Source of the DNA: Candidatus Entotheonellaceae bacterium
GTDB lineage: Bacteria > Tectomicrobia > Entotheonellia > Entotheonellales > Entotheonellaceae
Reading direction: 5' to 3'
DNA length: 64,000 nucleotides
NCBI GenBank assembly: GCA_965238075.1
Contig: OZ250173.1
Coordinates: 2,752,001-2,816,000 of the forward strand
Each line of letters opens with the position of its first letter. Position 1 is the stretch's first letter. Below are positions 51,017-58,668 of the stretch, piece after piece. A program made the translations under genes and the position numbers. The notes under the pieces were generated by a model that was given only the letters and a program-made list of their open reading frames with translations, had not been told where the DNA came from and searched no databases.

Positions 51017-51202
51017 TCATGCCGTCGTTCCCTCCGTGAATCGTCCTTCAATCCAGCCTTCGATGCGCGTCAGTCGCTCTTTGACGGTCGCCATGTCCGC
51101 TTGCAAGGCGTCAATGCGTCTGCTCAAACGGTCGAACATGCGCCACTGCAAGCCGACAACGGCCACCCCAACGCCAATGATTGCCCAGAATTCAGCACTC
51201 AT
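51017..51202 (-). CDS. Small membrane-anchored coiled-coil protein (61 aa), cut off from its RBS by an IS
   Basis: MSAEFWAIIGVGVAVVGLQW...RIDALQADMATVKERLTRIEG. Confidence 0.65.
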   Translation of the reverse strand: MSAEFWAIIGVGVAVVGLQWRMFDRLSRRIDALQADMATVKERLTRIEGWIEGRFTEGTTA

Positions 51203-51204
51203 GC

Positions 51205-52699
51205 GAGCCACTTGCAGAATTGCGTGTACGAGTGGGATTTTCTTTCTCCGTGTCAAGCACGGGGCAGGCTCTGGGGCTGATTGGTGGACATTGGGGCCGC
51301 TTTCTGATTCTGTTGAGTTGTCAAACAACCGAATCAGGAGGAACGACCCCAATGGCCTTACGTGAGATACTATCGAGTTACTGGTCTTGCTTTCAAGCGC
51401 TGCTGTTCCCGCAGCTTGAGGAAACGATCGGGGCGCTGGGGGAACGCCATCAGCGCTTCGTCATGGTGCTCGAATGGGTGCGGGTGGAAACGCTGCTGCC
51501 GTACCAGCACCGGCGTCGCGGCTGTCCGCCAAGCGACCGCGCGGCCTTAGCCCGCGCCTTCATCGCCAAGGCCGTCTTCGCGCTGGTTAGCACCCGGATG
51601 TTGCTTGATCGTCTGCGCCACGACAGCACCCTGCGCCGGTTGTGCGGCTGGCGTAGCGTCAAGCACATTCCGAGCGAGGCGACGTTTTCACGTGCCTTTG
51701 CCGAATTTGCCGACAGCGCCTTGTCGAGCCACCTGCACGAGGCGCTGATCAAACGCACCCAGGGTGAGCGTCTGGCAGGCCATATTTCACGCGATTCGAC
51801 GGCGATTGAAGGGCGCGAGAGACCGACCCCGAAGGCACCGCAGCCGGCCAAGCCGAAGCGAGGGCGCGGGCGTCCGCGCAAGGGCGAGGAGCGTCTCACG
51901 GAGCCGCGCCGTCTGGAGCGCCAGCGCAACATGACCCTGCCGGAGATGCTCGCCGACTTGCCGTACGCCTGTGACATTGGCGTCAAGCGCGACGCCAAGG
52001 GCTATCAGACGTCATGGAGCGGCTACAAGTTGCATATTGACGCGGCCGACGGCGCCATCCCGGTCAGTTGCCTGCTTACCTCGGCGTCGCTGCACGACAG
52101 CCAAGTCGCCATCCCGCTGGCGACCCTGACGGTGGGGCGAGTCCGCAACCTGTATGACCTGATGGACAGCGCCTACGATGCCCCGGAAATCCGCGCCCAC
52201 AGCCGCGCCCTGGGTCATGTTGCGATCATCGACGTCAACCCCCGCAGCGGCGCGCGCAAGCAGGCGCTGCGGCAGGAGACGCAGGCACGGCGTGCCTGTG
52301 GGTTGGTCCTGTCTGAGGAGAGACGTTACCACGAACGCTCGACCGTCGAGCGTGTCAATGGTCGCCTCAAGGATGAATTCGGAGGTCGCAGCGTGCGCGT
52401 GCGCGGCCATGCCAAGGTGCTGTGTCATCTGATGTTCGGGATTGTGGCGCTCACGGTTGATCAGTTGATGCGCTTGGTGACCTGAAGCTGGTCTCGCGGC
52501 CCCGTTTCCTCCATCCCGGCACGCACTGCTGTCCTGTACGCAGGGGGAGAGTTGCGTCCGCATCGCAAGACGGGAGCCGGAACTCGGCACCGCCATGGCT
52601 GAATTCGTGGCAGTTGGAACCACCGACGGCAAATGATTCACCGTACGGTCTCATGACAACCGCTCCGAGGCCAAACTAGCGGAGTTTTGCAAGTGGCTC
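51205..52699 (+). mobile_element. Complete IS (IS5/IS1182-like), 1495 bp
   Basis: IRs GAGCCACTTGCA(G/A)AA; ATGC duplicated at 51201-51204 and 52700-52703. Confidence 0.9.
51352..52485 (+). CDS. DDE transposase
   Basis: PSEATFSR, SRDSTAI, GYKLH, MDSAYD, RSTVERVNGRLK. Confidence 0.92.
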   Translation: MALREILSSYWSCFQALLFPQLEETIGALGERHQRFVMVLEWVRVETLLPYQHRRRGCPPSDRAALARAFIAKAVFALVSTRMLLDRLRHDSTLRRLCGWRSVKHIPSEATFSRAFAEFADSALSSHLHEALIKRTQGERLAGHISRDSTAIEGRERPTPKAPQPAKPKRGRGRPRKGEERLTEPRRLERQRNMTLPEMLADLPYACDIGVKRDAKGYQTSWSGYKLHIDAADGAIPVSCLLTSASLHDSQVAIPLATLTVGRVRNLYDLMDSAYDAPEIRAHSRALGHVAIIDVNPRSGARKQALRQETQARRACGLVLSEERRYHERSTVERVNGRLKDEFGGRSVRVRGHAKVLCHLMFGIVALTVDQLMRLVT

Positions 52700-53066
52700 A
52701 TGCGTCGTTTCCTTACGCTCCCAAGAGCGGTTCAAGACTGATTAACACCATACAAGGCTGCCGTATCGTTATTACCGTCGCATGCCGGAATCCAGCGACC
52801 CCGGAGCCAATCCGGGGCAGGCTTCCCACCGCGTCAGAGTTCAGAGTAGCATATCAATTTGGCCTATCATCTGCTTTGGTTCGAGACCAACTTCTTTGCC
52901 GGCCGCGCGACCTATCCTATCAGGGCTTGGACTGCCCGTCACTTGGCGACCTTGATAGGTACGACCGCAAAGCGCCACGAAACCCAGGCGATAAACCGCC
53001 CCCACGGGTTCGCGCCGCCCCGTGGAAATTTTGCGACGTCACGGAAAAAGTACGACAGCGCCAGGG

Positions 53067-53338: not shown

Positions 53339-53427
53339 GTAGGTCGGGTTAGCCGCAGGCGTAACCCGACATTCCGACGCGCTGTCCCCCGACCTCTGTC
53401 GGATTACGCTACGCTAATCCGACCTAC
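53339..53427. repeat. Inverted pair of GTAG-family REP elements
   Basis: GTAGGTCGGGTTAGCCGCAGGCGTAACCCGACA and TGTCGGATTACGCTACGCTAATCCGACCTAC. Confidence 0.8.
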
Positions 53428-53769
53428 GGTTATACCGGTGCCGGGTTTGATCCCGGATCAAAGCCTGCCCCCGACTTGAATAGGGGGCCAGCGGTGATTC
53501 CTCCAGTCGGGTGAGGCCATATGCGCTTACCCTGATCCGTTGGGTGACGTGTTTGCGCTTTACCATTGGGTGTACTTCTCTCATTGAGTTATTCACCCGT
53601 GAGTGGGGTCACGCGATGAACGATGCGCAACGCAACCTGCTTGCCAAATCCCTGGCCGACATTGCCAAGGGTGTCTTTATTGCTGCCCCTATCGCCCGCG
53701 GCACAGGCAAGATAACCCCGTGGGTGGGCCTGGCCGTCGTGGGTGGCGCAATGGGCTGCTACGTTAGTG

Positions 53770-55099
53770 CTGAGGTTTTGCAATCTGGCCTGACTATCGT
53801 AGAGTACGCGCCCTTTTCTTCCTACCTTCCAAGACTTCCGCAGGAGGCTCTCTTATGCCGACGACTGTGGACTTCCCAACCCTTGTGAAACAAGCATTGG
53901 CCCTTTTCGGCGATGTCTTTGACAACGAACCCGCCCGGCGGCATTTTGCTGAGTATCTCACCGGTTTGATGGTGGCAGAGCGTAAAAACATCAGCGCCAT
54001 CAATCGCCTATTTGCCGTTACGACGGATCAATCCTGCCTCAATCGCTGGCTGGTCGAGGCGTCTTGGGACGCGGCGGTGCTCAACGACCGCCGTCTGGCC
54101 TGGTTGCAGGACAACCCGAAGACCCGCTACAGCCCTCACGGCGTCATTGCCATTGATAATACCCTGGTCGATCACAGCGGCAAGCTCATTGAGGACGTGG
54201 GCTGGTTGTGGGACCATGCCCAGCAGCGCCACGTCATCGCCCACGACTACCTGATTTCCAACTACGTCTGTCCCTCAGGCAGTCATTATCCGATCGAGTG
54301 GCGGAGGTTCAGGAAAAAGGACAGCTGCCCGTCCGAGGACTTCAAGGATCACACGACGCTGTGCCTCGACTTGATTGACGATGCCCTGGCACGGGACATT
54401 CCCGGCGATTTCACCTTTGACAGCTATTTTACCCACGCCAAGATACTGAACCATATCCATGCGAAACAGCGTCACTACGTGGGGGCTCTGAAGCTTAACC
54501 GCAAGGTGGTCTTTGAGGGCCGAGAACAGAAGCTGCAAGAGGTGGCTAGCCAGATACCCTTTAGAGACAAGAAAGCGGTGCGTGCGGGCAAGCGCTGCTA
54601 CTGGTATTTCAGCAAACGGATGCGCCTTGCGACAGTGAGTCATCCGGTTCGCATCGTGTTGTTTTGGAAGGACCGTTTTGCGACTGAGGCGAGCAAGGCC
54701 TTGGTGAGCAACCGGGTGGTTTGGGAGGTACTTCGCATGTTGAGGGTGTACCGCCATCGTTGGACGGGCACCGAGACCTTTCATCGGGATGGCAAGCAGC
54801 AATTGGGGCTAGGAGATTGTCAGGTGCGCAGCGGCAAGGGCCAGACCCGCCACGTGTATCTTGTCAGCGCCGCGTACAGTCTTCTGATGCACGCCATGCA
54901 CGCGAGCAGTCCGCATGAATGGACTCGTCGAACGCTGACGACGATTGGCGAAGCCTGTCGGGCGGTGAAGGGAGAACTTCTCGAACGCTTGGTGGACTGG
55001 ATCGTGGACAAACTAAGCGATGACGACTGGTCCATGTCACAGATTAAGGCTGTCTTGGCTCAGGCGTGACCGGGTAGAAGGCAAAATGCAAAACTCCAG
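53770..55099 (+). mobile_element. Complete IS (IS701-like), 1330 bp
   Basis: IRs CTGAGGTTTTGCA / CTGGAGTTTTGCA; TTAGTG duplicated at 53764-53769 and 55100-55105. Confidence 0.88.
53855..55069 (+). CDS. DDE transposase (IS701/IS4-like)
   Basis: YLTGL...KN, AIDNT, FDSYF, YRHRW..ETFHRDGKQQLGL. Confidence 0.88.
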   Translation: MPTTVDFPTLVKQALALFGDVFDNEPARRHFAEYLTGLMVAERKNISAINRLFAVTTDQSCLNRWLVEASWDAAVLNDRRLAWLQDNPKTRYSPHGVIAIDNTLVDHSGKLIEDVGWLWDHAQQRHVIAHDYLISNYVCPSGSHYPIEWRRFRKKDSCPSEDFKDHTTLCLDLIDDALARDIPGDFTFDSYFTHAKILNHIHAKQRHYVGALKLNRKVVFEGREQKLQEVASQIPFRDKKAVRAGKRCYWYFSKRMRLATVSHPVRIVLFWKDRFATEASKALVSNRVVWEVLRMLRVYRHRWTGTETFHRDGKQQLGLGDCQVRSGKGQTRHVYLVSAAYSLLMHAMHASSPHEWTRRTLTTIGEACRAVKGELLERLVDWIVDKLSDDDWSMSQIKAVLAQA

Positions 55100-55309
55100 T
55101 TAGTGCTCACAATTTGCTTGCCGGAGGTGGCTTTGCATAAAATGCCGCTGATTCACGGGACCTTTTGTGCAAGATGACTTCCTGCACAAAACCCGGTTGG
55201 ATATAGGCTTTCTCCGCCGAAGTCCGACAAACCCGGCACCAACCAAGCCGGAATACCGTCAGCCTGTGATACAATCTCTCGATTTTCACCATGCCGGGGG
55301 CCCCTCACC

Positions 55310-55723
55310 ATGCAGGACTGGATCAAAGAAAACAGCATTCCCATTACGATTGTCATCTCGACTGTCGTCGCCCTTGCCACAGTCTTGACCGTCATCCAGA
55401 CCTCCACCAATTCAATCCACTACCGACTCGACGACATGAACCACCGCCTGAACGACATCAGGGCCGAGATGAACCACCGCTTCGATGCCCAAGACAAGTA
55501 CATCAACCAGCGCTTCGACGCCGTAGACCACCGCTTCGATGCCCAAGACAAGTACATCAACCAACGCTTCGACGCCGTAGACCAACGCCTGGAGGGCCTG
55601 GAAAATGACGTCTCGGAACTCCGCCAACTCACCGTCAGCATCAGCGAACGCGTCTCCCACAACGAAGGACAAATCGACGTCATCAGGCAACAACTCCAGA
55701 CCGCCGACGCGCCCTCGCCCTGA
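55310..55723 (+). CDS. Membrane-anchored coiled-coil repeat protein (cassette passenger)
   Basis: N-terminal TM, then heptad-like repeats HRFDAQDKYINQRFDAVD x2. Confidence 0.75.
   Translation: MQDWIKENSIPITIVISTVVALATVLTVIQTSTNSIHYRLDDMNHRLNDIRAEMNHRFDAQDKYINQRFDAVDHRFDAQDKYINQRFDAVDQRLEGLENDVSELRQLTVSISERVSHNEGQIDVIRQQLQTADAPSP
55475..55582 (+). repeat. 54-bp in-frame tandem duplication
   Basis: Two copies differing at one synonymous site (CAG/CAA). Confidence 0.9.
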
Positions 55724-55835
55724 ACGCAGCGTAAGCTCACCCGACGTCCACAGGTCCTGACGGTAACCACGTCGGACACGACTGGCCTTTTGTGCAAAAC
55801 CGGCTCTCTGTGCAAAGCCGCCGGAGGTGACCGTC

Positions 55836-55940
55836 ATGACTGAGTTGGATGTGGTCGGCCTCGTCTTCTGTGCCCTGGTGATTGTTGGCCTTGTGTGGTC
55901 CATCATGGATGCCCGTAAGCGCAAAGCCAAATCCAAGTGA
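55836..55940 (+). CDS. 34-aa single-TM peptide
   Basis: GGAGG RBS; MTELDVVGLVFCALVIVGLVWSIMDARKRKAKSK. Confidence 0.6.
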   Translation: MTELDVVGLVFCALVIVGLVWSIMDARKRKAKSK

Positions 55941-58079: not shown

Positions 58080-58278
58080 TTCCATCATTCCATGCACCTT
58101 CCTCGAGCGCTACCCGAAGACTGGCCTCTCCTCACCTTCTTCAACCAACCACCGCGGTCTCACTTGGCCGGTGTCCTGCCAAGCGACCGCACACACAAAG
58201 ACGAGCCAAGGTTGACTTAGCAGCCCGTCTTCCGACACTATGTCCTACCGCAAAGCACCGACCCACAGGGGAAATACC

Positions 58279-58668
58279 ATGCCAACGGTTGATACGCTGA
58301 AACTCAAAACCAGGCTTTCGGAAAGCGGTATGCCTGAATCCCAGGCGCAGGTTCTTGTTGAAGAACTCGATGAGGCACTGAGCGCCGCGATTTCTCGTGA
58401 GACCGCGACAAAGGCTGACGTGGTCGAGTTGCGCGCCTTAATCCACGGCCTGGACGAACGACTCACTGAGTTCAAGACCGACAACGCAAAACAGCTCGAC
58501 GCACTCAGGAGCGATACCGGCAAACAACTCGACGCACTCAAGACCGATCCTGCCTCCATGAAGACTGAGATTCATGACATAAAAGGCGAGCTCAAGCTGT
58601 TGCGTTGGATGATTGGCGCTACGTTGACTATCACTATCGGCATTGGGGTCAGGTTACTGTTCATGTGA
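58279..58668 (+). CDS. DUF1640/CCDC90-like coiled-coil protein with C-terminal TM
   Basis: DTLK...GMPESQA...ATKAD; KQLDAL repeat; LLRWMIG TM. Confidence 0.75.
   Translation: MPTVDTLKLKTRLSESGMPESQAQVLVEELDEALSAAISRETATKADVVELRALIHGLDERLTEFKTDNAKQLDALRSDTGKQLDALKTDPASMKTEIHDIKGELKLLRWMIGATLTITIGIGVRLLFM

Follow-up and report, generated by a model that had tools for sequence, protein, structure and literature searches.

The unit at positions 55129-55819 of the window (the whole 64,000-nucleotide stretch of DNA that was analysed) is very probably a non-autonomous mobile insertion cassette of a group of IS903-related cargo transposons with a single transposase. We lean slightly towards a broader reading, in which a single IS903-like cassette gave rise to a genus-specific family of repeat-variable membrane coiled-coil genes in a sponge symbiont, with 10-40 copies per genome and later domestication, and the same ends form a cassette platform that extends across phyla and into archaea. 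In the domestication part of this reading, the ends would decay and the genes would stay under selection and expand into arrays; the platform part would take in toxin-antitoxin (TA), TIR, RCC1-like and IscB cargo, MITEs and a zinc-finger transposase group that has no name. Below, G000 denotes the genome of the window, G001 to G005 five relatives from the same genus, L numbers loci and X numbers runs.

The cassette and its target site

The cassette is 691 bp long, starts with GGCTTTGCATAAAATGCCG and carries GGCTTTGCACAGAGAGCCG, read on the minus strand, at the opposite end (Table 1). It is flanked by an exact 9-bp duplication, GCCGGAGGT, at 55120-55128 and 55820-55828. The TGCACAAAA motif is found at 55183 on the plus strand and in the reverse orientation at 55163 and 55788, the core of the A end being located at element position 24 counted from that end. 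The first-pass annotation had proposed a transposase-less unit of this size with inverted repeats, a perfect target duplication, subterminal motifs at both ends and one passenger ORF, and all these features hold, with both the coordinates and the duplication being exact. In particular, the only non-overlapping long ORF is the 137-aa passenger, and a six-frame profile search of the cassette detected no transposase remnant (best independent E-value 1.4). A minus-strand frame of the B end that resembles a decayed transposase tail scored nothing in the profile search, and an Rfam search produced no match. A MITE was considered as the identity of the unit and rejected because the unit encodes a protein.

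It is extremely improbable that chance repeats or an assembly artefact explain the unit. The terminal repeats are imperfect, with 14 of 19 bases matching, as might be expected of a chance pairing, but the probability that two specified places match exactly over 9 bases is 6.5e-6 for the base make-up of G000. Furthermore, contigs from run X3, which may be the source sample, cross both junctions without difference, and the left junction is found at the same site in related strains from two other studies.

Table 1. Features of the cassette and its flanks, in window coordinates
Feature	Position	Strand	Comment
First gene of the target pair	53616..55128	+	flank; split by the IS701-family element (53770-55099) and by the cassette, the latter close to the 3' end of the gene
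Left 9-bp duplication, GCCGGAGGT	55120..55128	+	last codons of the interrupted host gene
End of type B	55129..55191	+	terminal inverted repeat and core copies, spaced as in autonomous elements
Inverted core copy of the B end	55163-55171		ends at element position 43
Direct core copy of the B end	55183-55191		element position 55
Conserved motif TGTGATACAAT	55265..55275	+	upstream of the passenger
Passenger gene	55310..55723	+	137 aa
54-nt unit (33 + 21 nt), two copies	55473..55580	+	length-variable part of the gene
End of type A	55784..55819	-	terminal inverted repeat and a direct second copy 18 bp inside
Right 9-bp duplication	55820..55828	+	contains GGAGGT, which precedes the start of the following small gene by 7 nt
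34-aa hydrophobic ORF	55836..55940	+	second gene of the target pair; flank, outside the element; paralog at G000:C1:2548393-2548502

The insertion falls within the final codons of a small gene, directly upstream of the 34-aa ORF. A paralogous gene pair without the cassette is present at G000:C1:2548393-2548520, with one copy of the 9-mer, the same small ORF and a left flank identical to that of the cassette in 23 of 24 bases; the unoccupied target in G000 is an empty paralog rather than an empty allele. The search for an empty site suggested in the first-pass annotation was rewarded in part, with an unoccupied paralogous target and no orthologous empty allele among the five relatives: the 51-56 kb region is missing altogether from G001, G002 and G005, G003 yields no match, and in G004 the small ORF has different surroundings. 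No joint that skips the cassette was seen in the contigs of four runs, and such contigs cannot show absence. Two other studies provide runs X7 and X9, whose contigs contain the left junction and the gene at ~90% identity, the gene being 33 nt shorter within the repeats. These contigs are too short to accommodate the IS701-family element at this place; the cassette insertion is thus older than that element and common to the strains. The target consensus over 46 sites is weak, no base exceeding 0.42.

The ends and the probable transposase group behind them

The ends of the cassette are widespread in the genus. The 14-mer GGCTTTGCACAAAA, with at most one mismatch, occurs 4-32 times per genome in the six genus genomes (0-2 times for the reversed control). 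The end pairs in 20 fetched regions span 159 to 6087 bp of enclosed DNA; four have an exact duplication, and three more a duplication with 1-2 mismatches. The genes encoded between these ends include SPFH, TIR, Panacea, ParA, DUF433/DUF5615 and RCC1-like genes, and the cargo of the G002 cassettes takes in host-like genes and gene fragments. In other genomes, the 18-mer end is present in at least 120 loci, which, among the matches listed, belong mostly to Acidobacteriota but also to Verrucomicrobiota, Chloroflexota and archaea. When the nearest repeat pairs were analysed (n=61), the 9-bp duplication was exact in 20 and had at most one mismatch in 26, compared to at most one exact duplication at lengths of 6-8 or 10-12 bp. 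Most of these repeat pairs are MITEs of 98-339 bp. The RNA matches come from sponge metagenomes. Other copies with different duplications and different cargo, for which a search had been proposed, are indeed present, and coiled-coil genes are just one type of content: the ends enclose many cargoes, or none.

Several of these loci deserve separate mention. The RCC1-like cassettes L051:1077-2842 and L052:1039-2846 of G002 are 98% identical and located 1.45 Mb apart; their 9-bp duplications are exchanged, which implies either an inversion between them or an assembly join. A third RCC1-like copy in G002 is 98-99% identical where covered. In Dehalococcoidia, L094:3501-5294 is a 1794-bp unit with the same ends, an 8/9 duplication and a long ORF with RRXRR and HNH domains, which we take to be IscB-like. 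At L056:3807-3854, the inner inverted core of the B end is a full second repeat, resulting in a 48-bp near-palindrome.

The link to a transposase comes from sister cassettes. A 405-bp element of G002 retains 37 codons of a transposase tail, and three loci of G003 contain similar scraps. In the genus, transposase 3' scraps occur within or at the edges of the loci L051, L069, L321 and L322. For the sister cassettes that retain it, the scrap shows an origin by deletion. Used as a query, the tail scrap retrieved 16 proteins, of which 10 are 388-421 aa long and combine PF01609 with PF04434, presumably a SWIM finger; a C-x-C and a C-K-H motif are visible in the PF04434-bearing transposases. The profile derived for the transposase matches 1383 representatives at 1e-30. 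We analysed 85 loci with a full gene (80 from one set and five of the seven from a second set, two partial matches being excluded). Of these, 34 have an end on the proper side, compared to two when the motif is reversed. In 22 loci, the element is bounded by paired repeats and a 9-bp duplication (20 exact); they amount to 21 distinct elements because two loci contain the same one. The remaining 63 loci, with no bounded element, include many short contigs or other repeat subtypes.

The autonomous elements are 2388-8447 bp long, and all contain DNA beyond the transposase. Among the 21 distinct elements, 17 combine an A end, in which direct core copies are located at 24 (and 44), with a B end, in which an inverted copy ends at 43 and is usually accompanied by a direct copy at 55. 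The core copies of the window's cassette, at 43 and 55 on the left and at 24 on the right, occupy the commonest positions among the autonomous elements. Pfam assignments for 48 chosen cargo ORFs include PemK (2), restriction nucleases (3), DNA methylases (4) and HTH-IrrE (3), and about half of these ORFs have no Pfam match. The closest named relative of the transposase is IS903 (27% identity over residues 94-380), with the acidic residues and the Y-R-E motif aligned; the first seven bases of IS903 (HK022 copy), GGCTTTG, are those of the cassette, and both have 9-bp duplications. The best model is NF033579, for which four proteins score 107-124 bits, all four below the cut-off of 140. No solved structure was found for the transposase profile.

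We also observe four autonomous members (L221, L223, L226 and L231) with transposases of 322-324 aa that lack the N-terminal finger and have the same ends; thus, the finger may be dispensable.

The first-pass annotation had left the mobilising family unassigned. This no longer stands: the shared ends and the transposase scraps in sister cassettes point to an IS903-related family, mostly with a zinc finger. By analogy, the family transposase would be IS903-like in its working, yet an atypical member. An autonomous element with the same inverted repeats, which the annotation had suggested looking for, exists in other genomes, but no intact cognate transposase was found in G000 or its five relatives. 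In G000, a whole-genome profile search detected no cognate transposase (best E 0.61), and no intact cognate was found in the six genus genomes, which are 91-93% complete, so that the window's copy is probably stranded. Likewise, no intact cognate was found in 17 genomes of the class or phylum, apart from a 296-residue match at a contig start in G014, a member of another family, where the repeat subtype is different. The transposase remnant query found nothing in plasmids, nor in the at least 120 repeat loci among the matches listed. An intact element that has the consensus end is present in two viral contigs, and viruses are a possible route by which the transposase could be supplied.

The proposed mechanism follows the binding and cutting chemistry of IS903, which we assume as the model for the cassette. 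The DDE transposase from an autonomous copy would bind cores of the TGCACAAAA type in both of the unequal ends, cut at GGCTTTG and insert the unit through a 9-bp staggered cut. From these sequence relationships, we infer that the cassette was mobilised in trans by a zinc-finger IS903-like transposase, of which G000 and the five relatives yielded no intact copy. The window's cassette itself most likely arose from a cargo-carrying member by internal deletion of the transposase gene, and this copy is probably old as well as stranded.

A different resident transposase, such as that of the neighbouring IS701 or IS1182-like elements, is a very unlikely mover of the cassette. These elements are located within 4 kb of it in the window, the IS1182-like ends contain TTGCA, and G005 has eight matches to a 406-aa gene with a weak profile match. 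However, the termini of these elements (GAGCCACTTGCA, GAGCCTCTTGCA, CTGAGGTTTTGCA) differ from those of the cassette, for which reason both window elements were rejected as the mobiliser; moreover, the IS701 duplication is 6 bp long, whereas the subterminal spacing of the cassette agrees base for base with that of the IS903-like family.

In the paper listings covered, no description of this transposase group was found. Standard annotation misses the group: its transposase does not reach the NCBIfam cut-off, and there is no recognisable gene in the cassettes and MITEs. The core copies at 24/44 and 43/55 provide a simple search key for the ends.

The passenger protein and its probable spread in the genus

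The passenger protein contains a hydrophobic stretch at residues 11-29 (mean 2.37), that is, an N-terminal membrane anchor, which is followed by a long helix built of 11-residue (RFDAQDKYINQ) and 7-residue (RFDAVDQ) repeats. The fold is predicted to be one long helix (mean pLDDT 92.8, pTM 0.42). The two copies of the 54-nt unit are 98% identical, and the sister gene in G004 has one unit fewer. Thus, the earlier description of the product as a coiled-coil membrane protein agrees with the hydrophobic stretch and the predicted helix, and that of the gene as repeat-variable with the shorter versions in G004 and in the X7 and X9 contigs. Searches of Pfam, NCBIfam, PHROGs and PADLOC yielded only generic coiled-coil matches, HSBP1 among them, which is barely above its cut-off (28.9 vs 28.6) and was counted as generic. 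The first Atlas match (0.90) has no family, no homologues were found in viral contigs, and no description of the passenger was found in the paper listings covered.

The TGTGATACAAT motif is aligned across the passenger cassettes and absent from the other cargo, and is present also upstream of paralogs. In our assessment, it resembles the extended -10 promoter consensus and is a putative promoter-like element; a scan for -35/-10 promoters reported no site. A passenger-like gene is partly covered by RNA contigs from run X8, but it may be a paralog, or the contigs may derive from DNA, and they were set aside as evidence.

The passenger is under purifying selection: dN/dS is ~0.21 (0.049/0.235) against the G004 sister over 118 codons, and 61 of the 67 paralogs have kept an open frame. 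It is rather doubtful that the gene is selfish or near-neutral cargo that rides the mobile unit without benefit to the host. The high copy number, the variable length, the presence of some truncated or frameshifted copies and the higher pooled dN/dS over the paralog C-termini (0.35) are compatible with such cargo, but the paralogs with open frames include copies without ends, and the G004 comparison involves one partner without ends. Most likely, the passenger is a membrane-anchored coiled-coil accessory protein. Because the companion cargo includes toxin-antitoxin, restriction-modification and TIR genes, an envelope function in phage defence is our best guess at its role, a tentative one.

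Two more small coiled-coil/membrane genes are located in the window, at 51017-51352 and 58240-58668. Both have the opposite layout, with the anchor later or C-terminal, and the product of the second shows a weak CCDC90-like match.

Relatives of the passenger number 701 at E 0.001, with 11-46 matches per genus genome and few, weak ones beyond the genus. The census included the whole of G000 and the fetched loci of G001-G005 and comprised 67 copies with the C-terminal motif; ends were detected with a matrix trained solely on 20 autonomous ends. At least one end is found at 27 of the 49 dispersed paralogs (both ends at eight), compared to 2.05% of 2000 random places, and no end at the other 22 and at all 18 array paralogs. 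Within two mismatches, a duplication flanks seven passenger copies, three of which represent one shared insertion, leaving five distinct sites. In G000, the both-ended cassette at 1291811-1292544 is 68% identical over the full length and has a 5/9 duplication, that at 2355637-2356315 has a 7/9 duplication, and three further single ends adjoin paralogs.

Passenger repeats and 13 copies without a matched promoter motif were excluded from the tree, which comprises 54 of the 67 copies. On this tree, both-ended copies require seven changes, at least five of them forced by well-supported branches. The arrays form the inner part of a clade in which cassettes with both ends occupy the two outermost rows; one of these rows is long-branched, and the inner node is weak. 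In each of the 10 passenger B ends that were aligned, the gene points away from the end, and the spacer between the B end and the promoter is alignable among most passenger cassettes. Because of this fixed orientation and alignable spacer, an early origin in a cassette, with later loss of the ends, is the simplest reading and a likely one. The early passenger cassette would have been copied to many sites in the genus, with the ends decaying and the gene staying under purifying selection. The repeat number may have shifted by slippage, and one locus may have grown into the tandem arrays.

The main alternative is repeated capture, whereby ends or MITEs landed independently around the copies of a host coiled-coil family and moved some of them. 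Both inside and outside the genus, MITEs and single ends occur frequently, the G002 cassettes carry host-like genes and fragments as noted above, and the closest sister gene (G004, 88% amino-acid identity) retains the promoter, the gene and the 3' tail without these ends. Nevertheless, repeated capture is unlikely in view of the constant gene orientation and mostly alignable spacer, the alignment of one paralogous cassette over the full 691 bp, and the similar distances of the ends, ~50-125 nt past the C-terminal motif.

An early cassette origin also bears on the first-pass idea that a cassette spreads small repeat-variable coiled-coil genes: this passenger family does appear to have been scattered by the cassette, but the ends are not confined to coiled-coil genes. 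Sponge symbionts hold many small paralogous membrane or repeat genes of obscure origin, and the tie of one such family, copy by copy, to a defined transposon end outlines a route from mobile cargo to a fixed family.

The end-less sister in G004 (L313, upstream of 7731) is preceded by GCTTTGAAGC twice, and this pair possibly represents the end of an element of some other kind or subfamily. The passenger family forms tandem arrays at L320 (G002:C1:3272000-3282400), at L319 (G001) and at G000:C1:1049600-1052000. The G002 array consists of ~15 units of ~650 bp, each with the promoter-like motif and no ends, and in all three genomes the arrays adjoin an alanine-rich gene starting with MNLKK or similar.

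Described cassette systems and neighbouring elements

Mobile insertion cassettes such as MIC231 of the IS231 group (IS4 family), from Bacillus cereus sensu lato, possess two inverted repeats, no transposase gene and at least one coding sequence within ~700 bp to 3 kb, and contain different passengers between shared ends that are mobilised in trans (PMC6199540); such cassettes are also named in PMC3129680 and PMC3281130, and nothing further comes from PMC11578231 and PMC6542083. Set against this description, the window's unit has IS-type inverted repeats, a coding sequence and no transposase gene within 691 bp, and its ends are common to autonomous IS and to cassettes with other cargo. Transposition in trans may be reflected here in the distinct duplicated sites and in the three G002 RCC1-like cassettes, which are 98-99% identical. 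In contrast to MIC231 as presented there, the ends and transposase are those of the IS903-related group and not of IS231, the ends are unequal and studded with core copies, mobilisation in trans is something we infer for the window's unit, and one passenger became a genus-wide gene family.

The autonomous relatives share with IS903 the GGCTTTG termini, the 9-bp duplication and a DDE_Tnp_1 transposase. However, members of the IS903 group, of ~1050 bp in the group table of PMC3281130, encode only a transposase, whereas the relatives described here contain cargo, and most have an N-terminal zinc finger of ~85 residues that is missing in the IS903 group. With their one transposase and unrelated passengers between one repeat pair, they are transporter IS, of which the IS1595 family offers examples. 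The term denotes IS with passenger genes (PMC3129680); compared to those elements, the transposase group is different, the duplication is of 9 bp, and the window's unit has no transposase.

The system had been proposed to be undescribed. This appears to hold for the transposase group, which is new for such cassettes, and does not hold for the kind of element, which is that of described mobile insertion cassettes. What is new is the extension of mobile insertion cassettes to an IS903-related group; its weight is limited because the element kind is known and the copy is probably inactive.

Several other elements are present in the vicinity. An IS1182/IS5-like element with ends GAGCCACTTGCA occupies 51181-52700 of the window, and a relative with similar ends has eight matches in G005, three compared copies of which are >99% identical. 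The IS701-family element at 53770-55099 is flanked by a 6-bp duplication, TTAGTG, is represented by one copy in G000 and has very deep cover in the runs examined. Finally, a short element at 53339-53428 has extremely high depth and numerous loose ends in each of the four runs, which indicates a high-copy repeat of these communities.
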